64,000 nucleotides of DNA from Callorhinchus milii. Lineage: Eukaryota. The notes under the pieces were generated by a model. That model worked only from the letters and a program-made list of their open reading frames with translations. It had not been told where the DNA came from and made no database searches. Shown in pieces: positions 1,374 through 61,090 of the stretch; the stretch's first letter is position 1; each line of letters starts with the position of its first letter. The stretch covers positions 59,646,001 to 59,710,000 of the forward strand of contig NW_024704742.1 in the NCBI RefSeq assembly GCF_018977255.1, written 5' to 3'. Made by a program: the position numbers and the translations under genes.

Positions 1374-1466
1374 TTTTTTTTTTGGTCAGCCAGGTGTCTG
1401 GCACATGCAGAAACCCATCATCATGCTTAAGAGTATCGAAACCAAACTGAGGATTCCATGCATCCT

Positions 1467-1893
1467 TGTGGAGTGCTGTTGCTTAGTGATCAGAGCACTC
1501 ATCTCGCAAGCGAGAGACCTGAGTTTTATTCCCCGCAGTGCAAAACGTTGGGCAAGTTGCCTTACTCCACACTCCTCTGTTTACCTTGTAGTAAGCAGGA
1601 ACCCGGTTGTTAGTTGGTTGGTGGATCGATTTTCCAGGGATAATAATCCTTCAAAAAAACAATAATAACTTGGTCACTCAATCCACGACTGCTTGTGGAA
1701 CACTGTTGTGTGCAATTGGCTGCCGTGTTTCGCCCACAAAATACAGTCAATTCACTTTACAGTATATTCTGTGATACGTTTTGAAACTTGGGATGCCCTC
1801 CTGACGTGAAAGGCGCTTTACAAATGTAATTTTGTTATTGTTGTTGTCTAGAAAACGTGAAAAGCACTATATCAAATGCAAGGATTATTATTA
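1467..1893 (+). mobile_element. Young tRNA-derived SINE, long variant, with doubled 3' tail
   Basis: Degenerate tRNA head, ctctgtttacc..gtaagcaggaaccc middle module, an L2-type (ttg)n tail followed by a SINE (tta)n tail. Confidence 0.9.
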
Positions 1894-2074
1894 TCCCATG
1901 GAAATCTCAGAGAGAGAGACAGATTGTTGGAATGGAATGCGCATTATCTCCCTGGAGGGACGCATCCTGCGTATCTAACTGTTGAAAGTATTAGACACGG
2001 ATTGATAAAGGCCAAAGCTTGGGGACCCCAGTGTATGTGTTGAGGTACTGCTGAAGTCTAACCAACTGAAACTG

Positions 2075-2458
2075 TATGGAGTCGTGAAGCTTTGTTGTTA
2101 GAGTACTCACCTCACAAGTGAGAGAACTGGATTTAATTTCCGGCAGGGTGAAAAATTGGGCACGTTTCCTTACTCTACACATCTCTGTTTACCTAGCAGT
2201 AAGTAGGAACCCAGTTGTTAGTCGATTGGCCAGATAGGTTTCCCATAGGTAATAATTTCTTCAAAAAAATAATATTAATAAATGTGTCACTCAATCCATG
2301 ACTGTTTATGGGACACTGCTTTGCGAAATTGAAATTGGCTGCCGAGTTTTGCCCACAAAATACATAGTCAATTCACTTTACAGTATATTCTGTGAAGCAC
2401 TTTGAGACATCTCGAAAATGTGATGAAGTGCTATATCAAATGTAAGGATTATTATTAT
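2075..2458 (+). mobile_element. Young tRNA-derived SINE, long variant
   Basis: Head, middle module and (tta)n tail collinear with 1467-1893 and 59431-59783. Confidence 0.9.
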
Positions 2459-4404
2459 AGCTTGCCATTGATATTGCTGTCCGGCAAGCTTTCCTGTTGC
2501 TTGTCCAGTTAGTACCATCCTACCCCTGAGGGCTTTGGCTTGCGGGTTAGCAGGAGCTGAGTGGGATGACACCCTACCCCCACGAACCGGTCTGCCCTTC
2601 CGGATCCTGCCAATGAGTCAGGCTGGCTGTGCTGTCATCAGCTGTGCCGCTGGAATCTGCGGAACTGTCTGGCTCAGGAACCGGATTACAGAGACTGCCA
2701 CAGAGGTCTGGCTCATTGCCAACAATCTGTTGCCAAGCATGTCACCTTGGAGTCAGTTCAGCTCCAAGGAGACCTCAATTACCTCACCCTCAAGGAGGAT
2801 AGTCACTAGTTTGGTCGTTTGACATCTGACAAGCGTGGGTTTGAGCCTCACTCACTGGATGATTGTAAGTACAAGGAGCTCCCTGTGAGCTTTTTGATGG
2901 ACAACGCATCTCAGTATGAAATGTGTGAGAATATTGCCACCCTCTTCCTGTCCACAGCTTGGGCACACGTCCCTTCCCATTGAGTGATGGTTCCACCAAT
3001 TGGAGGTGCAGAGTTTAAGCAACAGCTACTTGCCTATTTGCAGGCAATCAAGGTGGATTCCAAGCGTTGGACGTACGAACATGTGTTCACAAACTCGGAA
3101 TCCAGGTAATGCCTTCCAACTGCTGTCATCCGCAGAACGGCACCTCTGAAATACAGCACTCCCACAGCAGTACACTGGAGTGTCAGCCAAGACTGGGAGC
3201 TATTGCTCGGTGTTCATTTTAGAATATATTTGATATTTTCTGAAGAAGCTTCCGATATTTACTGATTCATGGATGTTAATATCAAACTAAGAACCAGATG
3301 GCACATGATTCTCATTTGTCAAAGACAACATGCTTACAAGTTTCATCTAAGTATGTTGATGTATTGAGAATTCCTTCATTCATTTTTTCTTTCCCATCAT
3401 ATGAATGTTCAACATATGGCAGCATTTTGCTATTTGTTATTGGCTCAGATAGCTAGACACAATCCAGATCATGTTTTGCAAACAGGATTATGATGTTTCC
3501 AACTTCTATAGACATCAAAATCTCTGAAAAGGTTGTTAAGAAGTGATGCATTAGGTAGTCATCAATATGATACAGATTTGGTCACAAATTTACTGTGCAT
3601 TTCCTATTCAGTTATCCAACTATTGACAGCTCAAGGTATGTTCAGAAATACATGGTCAAAATAAAATCAGCTGCTCTTTTCTGTTGATAACATCCATCTT
3701 TCAGGGACAGTAGTTAAGAAAGATTTAATATGGAACTTAAGTCAAAAAAGCCAGCTAAACAAGTTTTGACGCTGAAATGAATATGATATCTGCAATATAA
3801 TTTTCCTAGCTCGCACATAGAGATACGGTCCATTTTTATGCTGTTGAAGCCTTGAAGATTGTATCAATTGTAATTACTGTGCAGGCTTCAATGCTTTAAA
3901 GTCTAATTTACATAGGACAGCAAAAATAATGCAATCTCTTAACATAAAAGAACATGCAAAAGAAATTGCTAACATGTAAAAAAAACAGGAGCTTAGGAGA
4001 ACAGATACAATTCCCATCAATCTGCTGGGCAGAAGCCAAAGTGAATGTTACATGATTCATCTACTTAACAGTGCTACCATAAAATAGAGCCAGATACGGA
4101 TCGAGCTAAATGCTGATAAACAGATCATTACCATACCAAAAATATGTTATACAGGGAGCAAGATTTTAACAAAGTGCTCATAAAATGGCCAATCTGCAAA
4201 ATCCTTCATCATAGTCGCAGTTATCATTAATTCAGCAATTTGCTCAACATAAGAGCCTTGTTGTACAAAGAAACCTTACTACAAAACTAAATGGTTCTGC
4301 TATGTCTATGTAAAATCTGGTAATGGAATTGGTCCACCTAATGTGCTGAGCATTCCAAACTGCATATAATTAAAGAGTCGTTAGTGCTTGAACGAAGACT
4401 ATTG

Positions 4405-6537: not shown

Positions 6538-6760
6538 CAGTGGTAGCCAATCTTTTTGGTCAGCCAACCAAATAATTCTTTTTACTGCATGTTTCTTGAT
6601 TTATGGACACAAGATGTGAAGTGTGGCTCGGTAGCTCCTGGAAATAAGGTATTAATTTGGCACAGACTTGCCTGGGCTGGAGCGAGTGTTCGGCAGGCCA
6701 CTTCTTGACGCGTGAGATAATACATTACACTGGTGTAGTGGTCCGCAGTCTCCCTCAAGA
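6538..6760. mobile_element. Possible left end of a hAT (Charlie-like) non-autonomous DNA transposon
   Basis: cagtggtagccaatcttttt TIR-like start directly after atctagac (NTCTAGAN target preference); it truncates the Gypsy RT. Right TIR not found. Confidence 0.45.
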
Positions 6761-8615: not shown

Positions 8616-8679
8616 TGCTCTATTAATGCTCCATTAATGCTCTAACACTCAGCAGTACACTACTGTCCAAATTTATATA

Positions 8680-11500
8680 TACTACAAAATGTCCGATCCC
8701 TTTCTAACAAGGCTCTCGCCATCAAAGACATCATGGTTGATGTAAACATTGATATCCTGGCCCTCATTGAAACCTGGACCACCCCAGGCGACACCTTCGC
8801 CCGATTGAGGCCACACTATCTGGCTATACCTTCCACCATACCCCACGTCCTAACCGCCATGTCGGTGCTGTGGCCTTCATCTCCAGGTGCTCACTTGCTC
8901 TATCCCCTATTCCTCTGGCTCATTCCCCTCCTTCGAGCACCTTATCCTCTACCATCCCTTCAATCCTCCCTCAAAATTCTCCTGATTTATTGTCCCCCCA
9001 AACCCTTCCCCACCTTCATCTCTGACATTGACACCCTCCTAGCTTCCCTCTGCCTCCGTTCTGAACACCTTTTCATCCTAGGTGACTTCAACCTGCACTT
9101 CACCCTTCTTGCTCTAACTCCATTGACTTCTCCTTTCTTCTTGCCTCTCACAACCTCTCCCTCCACATCCACTTTGCCACCCACGTTTATGGCCACCCAC
9201 TCGACCTAGTGATTACTTGGGGCCTCAGTGTCTCGGATATCACAATCACTGATAAAGCCATCTCAGATCACCATTTAATCTCCTGTAACTCCTCAATACC
9301 TCTCCCCACAGCCACCCAACCCATCTCCATCTTCTACCAGCCCATGAAAAGAATTGCCGCCCACTCTATCTCCGCTGCCCTGGAGTCATCTGAACACCTT
9401 CCCCTCTGACCTATCTCCTGCACCAACCGATCCTCCTCAGTCACTCTCCTCCACAACTCCCTCTCCATCATTCTCGATGCCCTTGCCCCCCTCACTTCCC
9501 GAACTACATCCTACTCATGAACCTCACTCTGGTACACCAGCCACCTCTGCTCACTCAGGGTCAGATGCGTGCTGCTGAATGCACCTGGCTCAAATCTGAT
9601 TTAAAGGTTCACCAGCAGATCCGACTGGAACACATCAAAACTTATTGGTCCGTCCTCACCACTGCTAAATCATCCTTCTATTCCAAGGTAATCTTGGAGG
9701 CCAAGGACAGCTCCAGGCCCCTACCCATCCTCCACACCTTTGAACCTGTCTCCCCCTCCTCTCTCACCACCACTATAACCTGCATGAAGTCCACAACCTG
9801 CTCCTGTCCCTACTCTTCTCCTTACCTCCCAGCACCATCTCCTCACCCCTTTACTCTCAGACCTCATCAACCTCTCCATGTCAACTTGCACCGTTCCAAC
9901 CCCTCTAAAAATAGCTGTCATCACCCCATCCTAAAAAAAGCTTCCCCGGACCCACCCCTGCTCACTATCTATTGCCCCATCTTCAACCTCTCTTTCCTTT
10001 CCAAGATCCTTGAAAGAGATGTTGCTTCCCAGAGTCATTCCTTTCTCTCCTGCCACTCCCTTTATGGATCTCTCCAATTGGATTTCCGTGGCAGTCAAAG
10101 CATGGAAACAGGCCTGGTAGAGGTGACAAATTAAATTATGTCCATCTGTGACCAGGGCTTTCCTCTGTCTCCTCGTCTTCCTTGACCTCTCTGCTGCCTT
10201 TGACACTGTGGACCACTCTATCCTGCTCCACCACCTCTCCTCTCACCTTAACTTTCAAGGTTCTGTCCTTGAATGGTTCAGATCCTATCTCTCACACCAG
10301 TTCTTCCTTGTCTCCACAAATGACTTCTCCTCCAGCCCCCACACCATCTTGTGCGGTGTTCCTCAGGGCTGATGGAAAAGACTGCTCTGTCCTCATGTTC
10401 ATGCTCACTCTTGGTGACATCATACGCAGACAAGGGGTCAACTTCCACATGGGAGGAAAAGTTTGCAGGGCTATGGGGAGAGAGCGGGAGGAATAGAATT
10501 GATTTGGGTAGCTCTTTTCAAAGAGCCAGCACAAACACGATGGGCCAAATGGCCTCCTTCTGTGCTCTATAATTCTATGATTTTATGACACCCATCTCTA
10601 TCTCTCTGCTTCCACCCTCGACCCCAGGACCACTGATATCCTGATAGACTGCCTATCAGACATCAAGACCTGGATGAGAGCCAACTTTCTAAAGTTGAAT
10701 GTCAGCAAGACCAAGGTTTTCATGATTGGTTCGCCCCAGTGCCTCCACTCACTCCACCTCACCAAACCAATCAGGAACCTGGGCATCCTGTTCATCCCAC
10801 AACTGTCCTTTCTTGCCTACATCCACTCTGCCCACTCTGCCTTTCCCCACCACCGTAACATTGCCCAACTCCACCCCTGCTTAACACTTCAGGCTGCTGA
10901 AACCCTCACCCATGCCTTCGTTACCACTAGGCTCGACTATGCCAATGCCCTGCTTGTGGGCCTTGACAACTCTTACCTCCACAAGCTGCAGATCATTCAG
11001 AACTCTGCAGCTTGTTCCTCTCCTGCACCAGGCTCCGTGACCCCACCCCCCCCACCCTTGCCCGGCTCCACTGGCTTCCCATCCCTCAGAGGATCAAGTT
11101 CAAAATTCTCGTTCTCACCCTCCATGGCCTTGCCCCCTCCTACCTCTCTGACCTGCTGACCCCTTATCAACCTGTCCACTCGCTCTGCTCAGCAGGCTCT
11201 GGCCTGCTCCACGTCCCGCCCAGCATGCCCGACCATCAGCGGTCGGGCTTTCAGCCTCTCTGCCCCCACCCTCTGGAACTCCATCCCGCAGTCCCTCTGT
11301 TTTGCTCCCTCCCTTGCCTCCTTTAAGACCCATCTGAAGACCCTCCTCTTCTACCATGCTTTCGATTATCCTCCTTCCCCTGCCCTCCAACCCTTCCTAA
11401 TCCCGACCACCAGCTCGGGTCTGAAACACCGATTGTTCAGCGCCTTGGGATGTCCTACCGGCGTGATAGGCGCTGTACACGTAATTTATTGTTTTTGTTG
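8680..11500 (+). mobile_element. L2 LINE, near full-length ORF2 (APE endonuclease + RT), decayed
   Basis: LQNVRSLSNK, DILALIETW, LIYCPPK, ILGDFNLH, ISDHHLI (APE); [84 protein letters not shown]; 3' tail gccttgggatgtcct..ggcgct..(ttg)n. Many frameshifts. Confidence 0.95.
10452..10586 (+). mobile_element. CR1 3' end nested in the L2 RT catalytic motif
   Basis: ttgcagggctatggggagagagcggg...atgggccaaatggcctccttctgtgct..ttctatgattttatga shark-type CR1 tail between ttccacatg and atgacaccc. Confidence 0.88.
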
Positions 11501-11725
11501 CAAAACTGCCAAAAGTAATTTCAGGCCAGACACTATGAAATATTTAATTATCCAGGGGGTAACTAACAACTGGAACAGGTTAACAGGAATGGAGGTTGAA
11601 ACAAAGACACAATTTGATGCTGTATGGGAGGAATTTAAAACAGGTATTCTGAAGGGATGAGATCAAATAAGCTAAAAGGTCTTCTTTATTCAAGGTGATT
11701 TTATCATATTGTGATCTTGTGATTG
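11500..11725 (+). mobile_element. Old CR1 3' fragment
   Basis: Degenerate FRPD.MKYL.IQGVTNNWNRL motif and ttgtgatcttgtgat tail; similar relic at about 25960-26250. Confidence 0.55.
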
Positions 11726-13230: not shown

Positions 13231-16189
13231 AATTCATATTCTGTCTTTGTGATAATTATCACAGCACATATCACAATTTAACCCCTTTTGTACATAGATG
13301 ATCAAAAATTTATGTTTCTTTGTAGTAGTGTTTAGAGCAGATTTTAATCACAGCAGGTTTAATTTTGATTCAGACCCTGATCGCAGAGGTAAAAAGGTTT
13401 CTGTGCTAAGTCAGTGTACCACTTATAACCTGAAATATACTGCAATTTCTTGTTCTTGAATTCAGAATATTTTGTATCAAAAACATCACTGTCACCACGT
13501 AAATACAGCATCTCCCATGACAAGGGTACTGTAACAAAAATGCACATTGAATAGCATTTACAATAATAAAACATAATAATAATCATTGCATTTGGTATGG
13601 CACCTTACCATGTCGTTGAGACATCTCAATGTACTTCAGGGGATTTGCTATAAAATTAAGTGATTATGTTTTGTAGGGAATCATAACTGTATTTTGTAGG
13701 TGATCTATGAACTGTTTCAGGTAACAAATAAAAATTAAAATGTACGCAAACACAATCAGAGGTGATCAGTACAATTTCTCAACATGACATTTCACAACAT
13801 CTTGACTTAAACAGAAACGTTGATTGCTGATGGGTATTGTGTTGCCTTTGTCTCTCATGGATTATCACAACAAGTGACTAATAGTGGAAAAAGGTGACAT
13901 TACAGTGGTATATTTCACATCATCTCTCGTGTGCAATTGGCTGTCGCGTTTTGTGTGCAAACATCTTGTCTGGATTCCACTGCATGACAAGATGTAACCT
14001 GGGTTTGTGGTTGTAGCTCACAGCCAACCCATCAACAAACCCTCCCGGAAAGTCCGCAGTGGTTATTTGAAAATCAATGATTATGCATTTGGCTCCTGGT
14101 TAAACTTTGTATGGAAGAAAAAGCAAAGGCTCAATTTGCGGACCATTTATGGAATAGCTTGAGGCACATTTGTTTACTGTCTTTATAATTCACATAAAGC
14201 AACATCCTTTTTTTTTGCAAATATGGGAACCAAAATCCAATTATATAATGATGCATTATTTCTCTAAACAATATAACTGAAGGTTTAAATCACTGATATT
14301 TGCTGATTGGCGATTTGTCCTGGAGTAATTCAGATAAATCTGTTTTCCTGGACAAAGGGTAGAAAGGGAGGAACATAAATCTGCAATAATCCGGTTATCA
14401 CAAATAGCATTATTTAATAGATGCAAGACCGGAGGCAACAATTAAAATTTAGTAGCTTGCGTTTTCAATATTTGATTCATAATCTTCTGTGGTATTTACC
14501 TGTGGGTTGTATTTCTTGCGAATGTCACTTATTTATTTTTTTCCCACGCGTCTAACCACAGCCTACAGAATATGCAGTCACTGGACTTTACAGTATATCC
14601 TGTAAAGGCTTTGAGACATCCTCCTGACGTGAAAGGTGCTATATCGAACAGAAAGATTATGATTATAACACTGGTTCATTACAACAAAAAGTGAAAACTA
14701 TGACATGTGCTAATTGTCATTAGTGTTGAGAATTGCAGGTTAGTTAGCCCATAGCCAAAGATTGGCTGTGAGTGTGAATCACCTTGTCAGAGTGTGACAC
14801 ATTTGTTGGGTTGCTGCCAATGCTGTAGTTTTTAGCCACAGAGAATGGCATTTGAGTACTGCACGACGGGCTAGCAATCAGCCTCAATTTGAGTTAACCC
14901 AGTATTTCATGAAGCAATGCACAAATCCCACAATCTATGGCCAATAACTTCAAGGTTGATAGTGGTTTCAAGTCCAACTGCTTAGTTGCAGTCAAAAGAA
15001 CATACTCTACCTTTACTTTCCACACATCACTGCAGTTCAGACAATTGGGACTAAGTCTGAGACTGATGGCAAATGGCTGATATTAGATTCTGCTGTATCA
15101 CCCTTCAGTATCCTCAACCTCAGAGTATTTTCCTTTTCTGAACTCCTGTTTCCTTCTGATTCTTACTTTTTCAGTTTGCCTACTTTACCCATTAGGCCTC
15201 TACAAAATATCCCAGACATATAGTTATTCACGATTATCAGCACATACTGTGTACAGAATGGGGTGAAATGTTTGGCATTGCATAATGTTTTCCTTGTGTT
15301 AATTATCATGAGTCATATAATATAAAATGCAACATATTTCATCCTAGTATCTTGGTTACATGTGCAGTATTTTTTTGTTATCGTTATATGTAAAAGACAA
15401 TACCATCTGGTGCAGATACATACATATTTTATCAAGAAATGGCATAGTTAATTGAATAATTGAATAATTCAATACATTAATGATGAGTATATAAAACTGA
15501 CAAATATTGGAACTTTTTAAATCATTAATTTAGCAAATAGCAACAAAAAGAGAGATACTTAACAGTAATATTTATTTTCACTGATTAGATTCATCTAATG
15601 TGTTTATGTCCTCCAGTGAAACCTGGAGCAAATTCGCATTGCTTCTGAAGCATTAAAATGAGTATAATTTACAAATATTTTATGCTTAGTTCACAATTTT
15701 CCATTCAAGTAATTATGCTTTAAATCAGGAACCCAATCTGTTTTGAGTCTGTCTCAGTATTGATGTATAGATCAGAGATTTACGCTAAAACATAGTTTCC
15801 CCCTTTTGTTGGCTATATTATGAGACTATTTTAATGATGCAGGATTTCTGCTGGTTGAATCTCCTATTGACCTTTCTAAACTCATGAATGGTTCTTATCA
15901 AAGTCCATTATGATTATCACTAGAGAAGGCAGCTTCTCCATTAATGACCGGTGTCCTGGCCAACAGTCCCCCAGATAAAATTGATCATTCACTTGATGTC
16001 TGTTTGTGGGACATCGCTGTGAGCAAATAGGCTGCCGCGTTCACCTTCCTATGCAGTCACTATGCCTTACATTAAATCCTGTTAAATTTTTTGAGACATC
16101 CTCCGAACATAAAAGGCACTATACCAACTACAAGAATTATAATTATTATTGTTGTTAAGACTTGTACCTTTTCCACTGTTGAGAGCCAC

Positions 16190-18210
16190 CCCTTCCCAAA
16201 ATGCCCTGCTCCTAATCCCCATCCCTTGTTACTCCTACTCAGTCCTTCTCTCCTACCACCCTCCATATCTTTTCTCCCTCCTGGATCTCCCACCGCCTCT
16301 CGCTGCTCCAGCCTGGGCATCCTCCACTGGGCTCACCATGGCAGCTGGTTATGGTTGTCCCAGAGCAGCCACCCCAACCTCTCCAACACCCATATTCTCT
16401 GCAAGGTCTGCCTTCCCCACCTCCAACAGACGTGGGAGGCAGGCCTCATCCACCTCCACGTCCTTTCCAACTCTCCCCCTCATACCCAACAGTCGTTCCC
16501 CCTCTCAATTTACAACAATGCCTCCCCTTCCTGTGCCTCAATTCGCATTGGCCTCCAAAATATCTGCTCCCTCTCAAATAAAGCTCTTACAATCCACAAC
16601 GTTATCCTGGACGAGCAAATAGACATCCTTGGGCTCACAGAAATCTAACTCTCCCCTAATGACGCCGCCTCCCCAGTCAAAGCCTCCCCACCTGGTTACA
16701 CTTCTCACCACACACCCCACCCCAACGAACGCGGCGGCAGGGTGGCCCTCATCTCCAAAACCTCCCTTGGTCTCTCCCCCCATTCCTCTGGCTGTTTCCC
16801 CTCTTTTGAGCACCTCAACCTCAACCATACCTCCTCCCTCTCCTTCAAAATTCTTCTGGTTAACCGACCTCCCAAACCTCCTGGCCCCTTCCTCGCAGAT
16901 ATCGATCCTCTCCTCTCATCCCTGTCCTTCTGTATAAACGCCTGCTCATAATGGGCAATTTTAATCTCAATTCCTCCTGCCCCATCTCTCCACTCTAAAT
17001 CTCACACACCATGTAAACTCCCCGACCCACAACTGTGGCCACCTCTTCGACCTCATCATCACCCGTGGTCAAGACACCTATGATCTGACCATCACAGACA
17101 AAGCCATCTCAGACCGCTTCCTCTTCTCCCTCTCCTCTCATATCACCTTCCCCTCCTCCAAACCCTGCATCATTGTTTCCACCCATGGAAGAAGCTTCCC
17201 CCCCAAGTCTCTCACAAATACCCTCTCATCCTTGGATCTTCTCTCCCTCTGGCCCTCCACCCACAGTTAACCATAGTCAGCATAATCAAAAATCCCAAAC
17301 CCGATTCCTCGAGTGCAGATGGCACAATACCGGCCTCACAGTTCATTGTCAACTGTGGCTTGAGCATCTTCATACCTACCACCTCTCCCTCTCTCAAGCC
17401 AAAACTACTTTCTACTCACATGCCATTCTCAAGGCCAAAAACAACCCATAATCCTATTCTCCATTACCCACCACTTCCTCAACGGCCTCGCATGCACTCT
17501 TGATTGTCACTTTTGATGCCAAGTATGAAGTAGTCCTGGACTTCTTGATCTCTAAGATAGATAATATCCACCTGGCTGCCTCCTCCTCCTCTTCCCCTTC
17601 CCACCCATCCACCCCATGTCACCTACCTCCCCATGCCTCTTTTATCAACTTCTACTTCTACCATGGTCCCCACCCTACACTCCTTTGCCCTCATCTCTCC
17701 CTCCTCCATTTCCCCCACCATCTTCTGCCTCAAACCCCTGCCCACGCAGCTTCTGGTCATTCAACTCCCCCACCTCTACCCACTGCTGGCTGTCAAAATC
17801 AATCAGTCCCTCTCCTCAGACTCTGTCCCACTCCCAATTATGGAACGGGTTGATTTCAAGATCCTTTCACTCATTTTGAAATCTCTTCATGCCCTCACAC
17901 CTCCGTGCGTATCTAATCTGCTTACCCCCCATTCCACCATCAGCTGTAGTTGTGCCTTCAGCCACCACGCCCTGAAACTCTGGAACTCTCTCCCTCAATC
18001 CCTCCGCCTTGCTCCTTCCCTCCATCCCTCTGTTTTGCCCCCTCCCTCCCCACTTTCAAATCCTGCCTAAAGACATTCCTTTTTGTTTAAGCTTATGGTC
18101 ACATCCACCTCTCCTTCTCCACCTGGTTTGAGGTCAGACTCTGCCGGTGTCAAGCACTCCAGGACAATACCTCCTGTGAAGGACACTATATAAATAGAAG
18201 TTGTTGTGTT
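16190..18210 (+). mobile_element. L2 LINE with 5' leader and APE domain, most of RT deleted
   Basis: IRIGLQNICSLSNKAL..IDILGLTEI, LVNRPPK, GHLFDLII, AISD; jumps near 17830 from the pre-RT region to LPIMERVDFKIL; L2 tail ending (ttg)n near 18210. Confidence 0.92.
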
Positions 18211-28334: not shown

Positions 28335-28825
28335 AGTAATATTCCTTGCATTTGATTCAATGCTTTATCACATTATTGAGATGTCTCAAAGCACTTCACA
28401 ATATTTCTGTGACCGCAGTGACTGTGTACAGCAATCTCCCACAAATAGCTTTTTGGGGGGTCAGCTGAGGATCTGTCACATGCAAAAAAACATCACCATG
28501 CTTCAGAGTATCCAAACTAAGCAGAGAGTTCCCGAAACAAACAGCCATGAAGTGAATGACCAAAAATATCTGAAGAATTGTTGGTGGGACACCGGCTGAA
28601 ATTCCTTTCTCTTTTCAATATTGAACTGCAGACAGGTTCTCAGTTTAACATCTCATCTGGTATTACGTCTTATCGGTAGGACAGCAACACCAACAATTCA
28701 GCCCTCTGGCAGTACTACACCAGAGTGTTAGCCTATATTATGAACTGAAAGTCATGACTTGAAGTTTGAACTCACAATTTCCTAATCCAGAGGCCAGAAT
28801 GCTACCAATTTAACCAATTTGACAT
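28335..28825 (-). mobile_element. Deu-domain SINE, interrupted at 28450-28536
   Basis: Tail aatattccttgcatttg, Deu core gtttaacatctcatct..agagtgttagcc, head tttgaactcacaa..ccagaggc..gctaccaa. Confidence 0.8.
28450..28536 (-). mobile_element. 87-bp retroposed 3' terminus related to the 1374-3125 element
   Basis: Gap-free 57/75 match to 1384-1458; T5 tract; 9-bp TSD acaaatagc (28441-28449) / acaaacagc (28537-28545). Confidence 0.8.
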
Positions 28826-50660: not shown

Positions 50661-51257
50661 CATAGGTAAAATAAATAACTTTAACCCTTCACACACAACA
50701 ACTGTTAATAATCCCATGTTAGCCAAGTAGTTTAGAAGCAATTGATTTGTTATTTAAGAGGTGGCATGTAAAGTGAAATTATTGTATGCACTAAAACCAC
50801 CTTCAACATGATTACAAGCTAAATCCTCATCCCAAAACAATGCTAGCTTGAAAAACAGCCAAATCTTACTATAAGACTAATTACTGCATAGGACAACTTT
50901 ACACTTGATTACTATTGCATCCCACACACCCATGGAAATTGAATGCCGTAGTATTGAAGGCAGAAGCAGTCGATTGTGACTACTGCTGCAGTTATCATAC
51001 GTTCTGACACATGGTGTTGAAGGATGAAAAATTAATTAATATGAAGTGATTCCAGCAAAGGAAAACAGTAATACAACAACAACAACAACAACAAGATTCC
51101 ATTTATAGAGGTACAAATTGAAATGTTCTGAAAGAACAGTGTTTTCCTTTTGTGTTGTGATTTGAACAGCTGGACTTTTGCTTAATTTCGCCAGTTTAAC
51201 TCAGTTGGTAACACTTTTACCTCTGGATTGGAAAGTTGTGAGTTCAAGACCCACATT

Positions 51258-52060
51258 ACGTCTTGGATGAGAGCTAACTTTCTTCATTTGAATGTCAACA
51301 AGACCAAGGCCTTCCTGATTGGCTACTGTCAGCACCTCCATACCTCAGGTGCTGACTGCATCATCATCCATGGATCCACACTCTACCTTGCTAAGCCAAT
51401 CCAGAACCTTAGCATCTTGTTTGACCCTCAACCAGCCTTTCTATCCTATATCTGTGCCATGACCTGCTCTGCCTTCCCCCACTTCTGCAAGGTCACCAGG
51501 CTCTGCCACTGTCTCACACCTCAGGCCGCTGAAACCCTCATGCATGCTTCCATAAGATCGTGGCTTGACTATGCAAACTCACTGCTTGTCGTCCTCCCTA
51601 ACTACTCCCTCCATAGGCTGCAGATCATCCAGAACTCTGTCCTTTCCCGCACCAGGCTCCACAATCCTATCACTCCCCATCCTCGCCCGACTCTACTGGT
51701 TTCCCATCACACAGAGGATACAGTTCAAGATCCTGGTCTCACCTACAAAAACCTTTATAGCCTTGCTCCCCCCCTATCACTGTGATCTTCTAACCCCCTA
51801 CCAGCCTGCTTGCTCCCTCCACTCAGCGGTCTCCGGCCTGCTTTACATCCCCAACCTCGCCCGCCTCACCAATGGCGGGTGGGTCTACTGCCACTCTGCC
51901 CTTACCCTCTGGAACTTCACCCTGCAGTTCCTCCACCTCACCCCTCCCTTGCCTCCTTCAAGACCCATCTCAAGACCCTCCTCTTCGACCATGCTTTGAA
52001 TCATCCTGCTTCCCACCCCTGACCACCACCCTCACCGATCCCAACTCCCAGTTCGGGGTG
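51258..52060 (+). mobile_element. L2 LINE 3' part, terminal tail missing
   Basis: SWMRANFLHLNVNKTK, LTPQAAETLMHA..LDYANSLL, LARLYWFPITQRIQFKIL, SFKTHLKTLLFDHA. Confidence 0.93.
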
Positions 52061-52505
52061 CGTGGATTAGAGGCGAAACCATTTGTGGTGATGAAGTGGA
52101 GGTGGTATGAGAGGTATGATCTGAACCAGTCAAGGACAGCGCCATGAAGGTTGAAGTGAGAGGAGAGGTGGTGGATGAGGATAGTGTCAACTGTTTCGAA
52201 AATAGCAGAAAGGTCAAGGAGGACGAGGAGGCAGAGGGAACCCTGGTCGAAGATGGACAGAATGTCATTTGTCACTTTGACCGGGGCTGTTAAATCTGAT
52301 TGGAGGGGTTCTTGAAGGGAGTGGCAGGAAGGGAAAGAGCGAAGCTGGGAAGCAATAATTCTTTCCAGAGGAAAGGGAGTTGGAGATGGGGTGGTAGTTT
52401 GAGAGCAGTGATGGATCCAGGGTGGGTTTTTTAATGATAGGAGTGATGATGGCCGTTTTTAATGGGATGGAAACAATACAATTGGACAGGGAGAGGTTTA
52501 TGATG
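52056..52505 (-). mobile_element. L2 RT fragment in opposite orientation
   Basis: Minus ORF 51970..52275 NDILSIFDQGSLCLLVLLDLSAIFETVD..VLDWFRSYLS. Confidence 0.92.
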
Positions 52506-59783: not shown

Positions 59784-61090
59784 GGGAAAGGAAATCCAAA
59801 GAAAAGATAATTGTGTATAATTTTCTATCATTGGTGCACAATGTACTTGGGATATCTTAATTCAAACTATTTTTGGGGGTCAGGTTTCACCTACAAAAAC
59901 TCACCACCATGGTTAAGCGAATCCAAATCAAATGACTTAGAGTTTTACATTGGCATGAACATTTCTGTTTGTCTGGAATGTAATGTGCATCCTCTCTCCA
60001 AAGGAATACACACTGATCATCTATTCCCAGTAAGAAATAAGTGCAGGTTGCTAAGAGCCAAGGCTTGAGGACCTCAAAGTGTGGGTTGTTGTGCTGGATT
60101 GTAATAGCAGGTTAGCTGCCTAGCTGTCCTTTCACTCACAGTTTCTGAAATCTAGAAACAACATGGAGATAAATGGAGGGAAAAGCAGATGATTTTATGC
60201 ATTTTGTTTAAAAATTAAACAATACATGTTCTAATGGCAAATCACCAATCTCACAACTGCTCAGCTCTGCATATAACAAGGACTGTGTCTTGTGATATGA
60301 CCTTTATTTACTACAGCAGAATAAAGTGAATTGCTTGACAGGGGATTTCCAATATAACAGCTAAGCGGTAGCATGTGAAGAACTGAATGAAGTTCCTTTC
60401 AAAACTTGTTCATTGGAACACCTCTGTCAAGCAGTTTACTTCATTCAGTTGTTGCCATTAAAGGGGCAGGGTTGCAAGCTACTTTGGTGTGTTTCTACAC
60501 AGAGTGGAGCTCTAATCAGTCTCCAAACAACGGGGCCCAGAAGCCGTCAATTTCACAAAATAATCCTTGCATTTCAAATGACCTTATCGGGTCATCAAGA
60601 CGTCTCAAAGTGCTTCACAAGATTTTATTTAAAATGTGGTGACTGTATTTGTAGATAAATGCAGCAGCTGTGCTCCACAAACAGCCATGAAGTCAATGAT
60701 TAATTTATCTGGTGGTCTTCTCCATGGTATTCTTTGAATAAGATATCCCAAGTACATTGTGCAGACACATGGGAACGTTGTTAGAAAAATATAGATTCGG
60801 ACGGAATTCTTGTCAGTTGTGACATATTTATGGACTCCTTAATTAAAGAACGCCATTACAAGTCACCCTTACCCTGTCCCTCTGTCTTCAAACCCCTCCA
60901 TAACATCTATCTCATTCGAGCATGTTTTTGGCCATCTTTCCCATCTGCTCCTCAGCTTTCCCAACCAATTAAGGCTCCCAAGTAGTTGTGTGAAGAACTT
61001 TGAAATTTCCTCTCGAGTTGAACAGCACTATCTATATGAATGTAAATTGTTGTTGCTAGTGGTAGTTTAGACTCCATTTCCTGAACTTAC

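Follow-up and report, generated by a model that had tools for sequence, protein, structure and literature searches.

Target-primed reverse transcription is recognised by an A tail, 5′ ends at differing points and duplicated target sites, as is established and as an excerpt of PMC1687206 also describes. LINEs whose 3′ ends are stringently recognised often have stem-loops there, poly(A)-ended LINEs among them (excerpt of PMC3747384). The other sequences to be compared here are box C/D snoRNAs, in particular U13 (SNORD13). A box C/D kink-turn (K-turn) is built from G1b·A1n and A2b·G2n pairs, a U·U and a G-C, with a helix next to them. The fourth base of box C, RUGAUGA, corresponds to position 2b of the K-turn, with the register deduced from the U·U at 3b:3n and the G:C at 4b:4n (excerpt of PMC5689011). 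A2b is one of the two conserved K-turn adenines, and is the acceptor in one of the fold's two near-universal hydrogen bonds (excerpt of PMC5061560).

The locus compared with these systems lies in a 64,000-nt stretch of Callorhinchus milii DNA, here called the window. It was originally predicted as a retroelement 3′ terminus built like a box C/D snoRNA of the U13 type. The locus is quite likely the ordinary 3′ terminus, composed of a hairpin-rich 3′ UTR and oligo(A), of an abundant non-LTR family of the LINE type. The likeness of its tail to U13 is probably a coincidence.

Structure of the Insertion

Copy 1 is one insertion of ~0.94 kb on the minus strand, from about 3123 to 1375, which splits a SINE and was later cut by two SINEs. 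Its 5′-most part (2459–3123) contains a decayed frame and can be read as the end of a LINE ORF2. The 3′ UTR (1895–2075) aligns with the upstream part of copy 3 (see below) and contains arm A (1897–1910) of a 14-nt inverted repeat. The terminal 3′ UTR segment (1384–1465) is rich in hairpins and includes arm B (1447–1460). The two later SINEs are tRNA-headed and on the plus strand. One is at 2075–2458 (Rfam tRNA at 2080–2151). The other, at 1466–1894 (Rfam tRNA at 1472–1543), has many copies in the window and separates arm B from arm A. Four tRNA-like SINE heads are the only Rfam matches at threshold in the whole window.

The flanks of copy 1 at 3138–3124 and 1374–1360 are two halves of one SINE, based on comparison with three uninterrupted copies of this host SINE. 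In the same comparison the flanks overlap by ~15 nt. This corresponds to a degenerate target-site duplication of ~15 nt on the minus strand, with its 5′ copy at 3124–3138 and its 3′ copy at 1360–1374, the latter running on into the host SINE to about 1074. The insertions are nested: copies 1 and 2 are each within SINEs of one type (1074–1374/3124–3200 and 28380–28620). The SINE at 1466–1894 is a later arrival, inserted into the loop that joins the two arms of the inverted repeat.

Read on the minus strand, the tail of copy 1 shows ATGATGA (1424–1418), 28 nt, CTGA (1389–1386), CC and ten A (1383–1374), the final A possibly being a base of the target duplication. This is the arrangement that had been predicted. 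A short hairpin had also been described, and a 5-bp hairpin adjoining box D is found. The limit of the element had been set at 1458, but the sequence continues 5′ beyond this position in reads and in other copies. Per shuffled 82-nt tail, the chance of a terminal CTGA together with a perfect box C is 1.7e-4. It is 2.8e-3 with a one-mismatch box C, and 1.7e-3 with the bare TGATG core.

Copies in the Window and in Reads

Two other copies are present on the minus strand of the window. Copy 2 (28447–28535) is ~85 nt long, 5′-truncated, and 77% identical to copy 1 over 74 nt (E = 3e-11). It reads ATGGTGA ... CTGA-C6-A5, has a target duplication of 9–12 nt, and sits in another SINE of the host type of copy 1. 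Its ATGGTGA starts at 28499 and its CTGACC at 28464, with the same 28-nt spacing as in copy 1. The original prediction had already noticed both motifs and their identical spacing. This part stands, but ATGGTGA is the majority state of the family and not a kept box C. Copy 3 (about 59870–60105), which had been overlooked, is ~240 nt long and diverged (nhmmer E = 4.6e-4). It reads ATGGTGG ... CTGA-C5-A5, with 20 nt between ATGGTGG and CTGA, and its upstream UTR is uninterrupted. This upstream region aligns with 2062–1923 of copy 1 with a score of 74, against a maximum of 36 in 200 shuffles. Separately, a 14-nt exact match to the last bases of the element and an A run is seen at 6553–6566 (E = 0.047); it lacks upstream likeness and is probably due to chance.

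Sequences from outside the window come from two organisms. The read runs X15 and X14 represent the same sample of organism B, and the contig runs X1 and X5 represent organism A. Reads were mapped on 1345–1494 at a likeness of at least 80%, a mapping that favours reads resembling copy 1. They pile up on 1375–1465 only, with a peak depth of 2278 (X15) and 4339 (X14) versus 1–8 on the flanks. At the oligo(A), the reads diverge into unrelated flanks (agreement 0.33–0.37). The copy number is at least ~2,000–2,300 per Gb of haploid genome, counted from reads of at least 80% likeness.

Behind position 1465, 306 of about 597 reads (X15) and 664 of about 1182 reads (X14) share one extension, with an agreement of 0.71–0.72. 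The shared extension is found in the window at 1895–1913, past the SINE at 1466–1894, with one mismatch in 19 nt. It had been proposed to check whether most copies extend 5′ into the same element, and both these reads and the alignment of copy 3 with the upstream part of copy 1 agree with such an extension. Dispersed copies at high number, a 3′ oligo(A), variable 5′ truncation, target duplications and a common 5′ extension are all observed. These are the features of LINE-type insertion, and the 3′ terminus of a LINE-type retroelement is thereby borne out.

Alternatively, a short and novel C/D snoRNA could have given rise to the 75–85-nt unit as its retrocopy or SINE, but this is extremely improbable. 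Copy 2, with ~85 nt, an A tail and a target duplication, does resemble type-1 snoRNA retroposons (excerpt of PMC1687206). Against this, over half of the reads reaching 1465 continue into one common sequence, copies 1 and 3 extend 5′, and no fixed mature 5′ end follows the target duplication. The reads over the tail region show no site where many molecules start or end, and the unit has no Rfam match. A simple snoRNA retrocopy is excluded by the 5′ extension common to the copies.

Scans with the exact motif for more copies gave no match in metagenome contigs, and 19 matches in viral sequences, all of them chance matches of 17–20 nt. One 5,265-nt contig of run X5 carries the element at one end; provided that its coordinates follow the direction of the record, 5.2 kb of it would precede the tail. 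It could be a long copy of the element, or a host transcript ending in the element. Run X5, of which 2015 contigs map to the element, is RNA only by guess, and these contigs were not counted as evidence of transcription.

Decayed Frame and Classification

In 2459–3123, the sense frame has the fewest stops of the six frames (4 in 221 codons). Of 2000 shuffles, 19 contained its C-x2-C-x10-H-x4-C (CCHC) motif. No protein was named for this part, on either strand, by Pfam, by PDB or in three homolog searches, and these searches revealed no reverse transcriptase (RT) or endonuclease domain in the window copy. The label "LINE" is thus provisional, drawn from the insertion anatomy and one CCHC motif. 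Clades with a C-terminal CCHC knuckle, such as L1/Tx1 or RTEX, are possible leads for the element.

A search of 1.8 billion proteins with the decayed frame gave four matches: two mis-predicted proteins holding the same repeat, and two unrelated weak ones. The former are the public protein models P0002 and P0003, which carry the repeat of window 2546–3124 in frame at their C-termini. P0003 is the model of COP9 signalosome subunit 5 of Callorhinchus milii. The repeat-bearing ends are probably gene-prediction artefacts or an exonised repeat. An in-register frame on the other strand (2621–3145, plus) has 3 stops in 175 codons and is protein-like; Pfam, homolog and PDB searches gave nothing for it. 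Elsewhere in the window, decayed frames at 8646–11660, 16076–18070 and 51186–52458 resemble, by eye, ORF2 fragments of putative L2-type LINEs.

It is quite improbable that the element is a long non-autonomous retroposon, or a composite whose part 2459–3123 came from another repeat or exon, mobilised in trans via the A tail. Consistent with such an origin, no RT was found, the antisense in-register frame is nearly as open as the sense frame, and copy 1 is the only window copy that joins 2459–3123 to the tail. However, a single target duplication brackets 3123–1375, the CCHC motif is on the sense strand, and 2546–3124 is a repeat at two other loci, those of the public protein models.

A Penelope-like element was considered and rejected: none of the 12 exact hammerhead cores of the window is in the element, and no GIY-YIG pattern is seen. 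Four of the 57 one-mismatch hammerhead matches of the window are in the element, and they are not family-wide where reads could tell (position 1438).

The C-Like Box in the Family

Position 1421, the fourth base of the C-like heptamer at 1418–1424, is G in 1274 of 1981 reads (X15) and in 2569 of 3863 reads (X14), corresponding to 64–67%. It is G in 99% (X1) and 89% (X5) of the contig depth, and in copies 2 and 3, two of the three window copies. The family majority is ATGGTGA, and among the window copies canonical box C (RUGAUGA) is seen in copy 1 only. CTGA is present at the 3′ end of all three window copies.

The original prediction had named, as grounds for abandoning it, a family consensus lacking RTGATGA and CTGA, boxes no better conserved than their flanks, and no Rfam signal. 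These grounds largely apply, except for CTGA, which all three window copies keep. RTGATGA is missing from the family majority, and no Rfam C/D family reaches threshold. The positions of box C vary no less than the flanks in the reads: 11–12% at 1422, 13–14% at 1423 and 64–67% at 1421, against 8–11% at 1414, 1416 and 1426. Conservation at the level of copies could not show selection, since dead copies decay neutrally.

The perfect C/D pair of copy 1 is one substitution away from the family state, so it is expected in many of the thousands of decaying copies. Non-G bases at 1421 occupy 33–36% of the organism B reads, about twice the 12–18% at other private sites, and a subfamily carrying a perfect box C may therefore exist. 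The consensus of the loose ends of diverged X14 reads at 1420 suggests an older form, ACGG, which is farther from box C.

Folding and the Proposed Kink-Turn

Copy 1 is predicted to fold as a long hairpin (−26.5 kcal/mol, z = −2.3), and some bases of the C-like box are within it. Copies 2 and 3 fold no better than shuffles (z = −0.07 and −1.15). The consensus fold of the three copies pairs the C-like box within a hairpin, where the pair 1446–1421 is U-A, C-G or U-G. With this pairing, the tolerance of 1421 for A as well as G would be accounted for. Covariation of boxes and stem had been suggested as a check; on the three window copies it does not exceed that of shuffles (72–218 of 500). In copies 1 and 3, three possible hairpins occur at matching places of the upstream UTR (1915–2065 and 59958–60108), with 25 pairs, 3 of them changed on both sides, in a comparison of two sequences only. 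Folds of these hairpins as single sequences do not beat shuffles.

The original prediction had proposed a C/D kink-turn, captured or mimicked, as the 3′ cis element. In this explanation the tail, captured or convergent, would bind 15.5K and so help the RT to recognise the LINE RNA, protect its 3′ end or route it to the nucleolus. It would do so in a subfamily with perfect boxes, or else by using a register displaced by 3 nt (GTGATGG). In copy 1 both boxes are perfect and a 5-bp GGGU/ACCUG stem could form, CTGA is shared by all three window copies, and the third of organism B reads with non-G at 1421 could belong to such a subfamily. In the homologous register, the majority G at 1421 would change the K-turn adenine 2b. 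The shifted register keeps G1b, A2b, U3b and G4b in the majority and in copy 2, but its next pair is G·G and it lacks an adjacent helix, and copy 3 has neither register. The consensus fold also places the C-like box in a hairpin, although its covariation is no better than that of shuffles.

Forcing the C/D fold costs 13–16 kcal/mol on the full tail of copy 1 (first estimate 13.3), and 8–13 kcal/mol without arm B. Forcing the shifted register costs 13–16 kcal/mol in copy 1 and 11.5 kcal/mol in copy 2. Opening the boxes costs 1.6–7.4 kcal/mol in real U13 genes versus 7.2–8.3 kcal/mol in copy 1. Because real U13 RNAs also pay to open their boxes and fold poorly without protein, the folding energy is weak evidence against a kink-turn. 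With a majority lacking RTGATGA, no excess conservation of box C, and no C/D match at the Rfam threshold, a working kink-turn is not supported as the 3′ cis element, and is considered very improbable.

Comparison with U13

Rfam was suggested as a further check, and no C/D family reaches threshold on any window copy. The snoU13 model (RF01210) scores 11.1 bits on copy 1 (gathering threshold 46, E = 3.5), and gives no match on copies 2 and 3. Over the upstream UTR, no match of a longer C/D RNA of the U8 or U3 type is seen in 59850–60130 or 1880–3140. A snoU105B match at 2603–2642, with 16 bits against 49, is at the noise level.

Rfam aligns ATCCT of copy 1 to the 5′ end of U13. This sequence is private to copy 1, with 87–98% differing at 1452, and is part of arm B, one half of the inverted repeat that belongs to the element itself. 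The 5′ antisense element 18S-A (GATCCTT) is not seen in the family majority, and copy 1 alone has the partial ATCCT. The antisense element 18S-C, TTGTTACG, is in none of the three window copies.

Published vertebrate SNORD13 sequences, from the list in the supplement of PMC9226516, were compared by eye and not aligned by program. In that list, TTGTTACG is present in 19 of 19 vertebrate U13 genes. The U13 features named in the original prediction are mammalian or undiagnostic. AGC or AGT ahead of box C is mammalian (in the list, all 11 eutherian U13 genes have it and none of the 8 from other vertebrates), and the end CTGACC is seen in 2 of the 19 vertebrate genes and in 10 of 23 aligned metagenome U13 genes.

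As natural references, metagenome contigs were scanned with a short gapped U13 pattern, which gave 46 loci (L001–L046). The 5′ 18S-antisense element, which is itself outside the pattern, is carried by 27 of the 46, and 4 of 40 scanned loci reach the Rfam snoU13 threshold. In prokaryote genomes, a U13 pattern has seven matches, none of them with the 5′ antisense element. Many of the 46 loci have the appearance of SNORD13 genes, from invertebrates or protists, that lack annotation. L010, L030, L035 and L045 are candidates for divergent SNORD13, with 30–39 bits in model R1 (see below).

An HMM of U13 was built from 26 distinct natural genes (24 from metagenomes and 3 added, minus duplicates). None of the three copies is among its 15 matches at E < 50. 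Covariance models were built from 23 natural U13 genes (R1) and from 6 (R2); the closing arm of stem I was one column off in R1 and corrected in R2. They gave 14 and 16 matches in the window at E ≤ 10, none of them on the C/D part of any copy, and the best score of copy 1 is 2.8 bits. As a control, 30 of 30 U13-like loci were recovered, 23 of them being training sequences. The reference set for the HMM, covariance and pairwise tests contains no shark or tetrapod genes, which limits all these negative results. One R2 match of 8.2 bits, at 59957–60018, coincides in part with the upstream region of copy 3 but is on the plus strand, opposite to that copy.

Pairwise comparison gave marginal signals. 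The mean score of copy 1 against six U13 genes of metazoan type was reached by 102 and 103 of 2000 shuffles, and its score against U13 by 28 of 6392 window slices. When the alignment between the boxes is anchored, p is 0.03–0.08 for the mean z and 0.07–0.09 family-wise, across three gap settings. Copies 2 and 3 give null results in the pairwise tests. From vertebrate U13, three blocks were picked by eye: TGGGT behind box C, ATGTGY, and ACCY ahead of box D. They appear in order in copy 1 and in none of 2,000,000 shuffles, a figure that overstates the case because the blocks were chosen post hoc.

These observations bear on the explanation that the last ~50 nt descend from U13/SNORD13. An ancestral LINE would have acquired it at the 3′ end, opposite to the usual order of such chimeras. 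The losses would include stem III, the loop with 18S-C and several bases just ahead of box D, and box C would have decayed. The chimera would have been the amplifying master, and its tail would by now have ceased to function as a snoRNA or kink-turn. The C-like box, TGGGT, ATGTGY, a GTGTC/GACAC palindrome like U13 stem II, ACCY and CTGA are collinear with U13, and copy 1 has blocks like stem I and stem II. snoU13 is one of five Rfam matches at E ≤ 10 on copy 1, and copy 1 is in the top 28 of the 6392 slices.

On the other hand, stem III is absent, and the explanation requires three separate deletions. All three blocks occur together in only 1 of 26 natural U13 genes, and copies 2 and 3 have none of the three. 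The HMM and the covariance models give no signal, and ATCCT belongs to arm B of copy 1. By eye, the bases that follow the C-like box look like arm A, and an internal duplication can account for them. Both of the more diverged copies have G at the fourth position of the C-like box, and the X14 reads suggest the older ACGG. In addition, the mammalian chimeras catalogued in an excerpt of PMC13174262 have the small RNA 5′ of the LINE. Descent from U13 is thus judged unlikely. The tail itself is not a U13 member, as its box C, 18S-A, 18S-C and Rfam score all fail.

Proposed Formation of the Copies

The preferred reading remains an ordinary LINE-type terminus, and its copies could have formed as follows. 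A LINE-type master RNA would end in the tail hairpins and the A tail. Its ORF2 protein (reverse transcriptase/endonuclease) would bind the 3′ end of the RNA and nick the target. The cDNA would be primed on the A tail and often aborted early, leaving 5′-truncated copies such as those of about 85, 240 and 940 nt. The early stop is perhaps at the hairpin of arm A and arm B, which would suit 85-nt copies such as copy 2. The insertions are flanked by target duplications of 9–15 nt, and the inserted copies are dead and decay neutrally. The family tail holds ATGGTGA and CTGA, and copy 1, or a minority subfamily, would have gained a perfect box C by one substitution. The role of the hairpins in RT recognition, the ORF2 identity of the decayed frame and target-primed reverse transcription itself are all inferred.

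The most likely meaning is one more family end of the LINE type, useful for repeat annotation, and a caution that perfect C/D boxes can arise by drift in individual decayed copies. A bolder speculation is that an ancestor of an abundant LINE family captured a U13/SNORD13 at its 3′ end, that this snoRNA, with internal deletions, was turned into the RT-recognition tail of an autonomous element, and that a perfect-box-C subfamily might still bind 15.5K. This is rather unlikely. If the U13 origin were true, a retroelement that propagates itself would have taken a snoRNA as its 3′ cis element, in the opposite order to known chimeras of small RNAs and LINEs. If the tail were kink-turn-dependent, one could ask directly whether retroelement RNA is routed or protected by snoRNP proteins. 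In the literature searched, no LINE tail derived from a snoRNA is reported. The family may already be catalogued in Repbase or Dfam.

Comparison with Known Systems

The element is similar to SART1 and to the tails of plant and algal L1, which are poly(A)-ended with stringent 3′ recognition (excerpt of PMC3747384), in its oligo(A) end and the stem-loops of its 3′ UTR. Variable 5′ truncation, target duplications of 9–15 nt and a decayed sense frame with CCHC are shared with poly(A)-ended non-LTR retrotransposons. Unlike the tails of poly(A)-ended LINEs, the element has no AATAAA before its tail, its target sites are not of the TT/AAAA type, and no RT is seen in the window.

The likeness to U13/SNORD13 (RF01210; excerpts of PMC9226516 and PMC9670809) consists of an internal C-like box ~30 nt from a possible 5′ end, TGGGT next to it, ATGTGY, and the 3′ end ACCY-NN-CTGA. 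In contrast, the boxes are 28 nt apart in the element and about 60–80 nt apart in U13. The element also differs in lacking the 18S-C sequence TTGTTACG, stem III and, in the majority, 18S-A, in its majority G at the position corresponding to 2b, and in being embedded in a longer element.

The snoRTE/PlatSINE1 of platypus is a precedent for a snoRNA sequence present at tens of thousands of copies within a retroposon (excerpts of PMC5499810 and PMC7245038). The platypus element has the snoRNA as its 5′ head and a tail derived from RTE, whereas in the present element the putatively snoRNA-derived part would form the tail. U6-L1 and U3-L1 chimeras and type-1 snoRNA retroposons (excerpts of PMC13174262 and PMC1687206) are similar to the element as single insertions with an A tail and a target duplication. 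In the U6-L1 and U3-L1 chimeras of those excerpts, the small RNA is 5′ of the LINE, and the chimeras are one-off and usually non-propagating, whereas in the present element one tail is common to thousands of copies.
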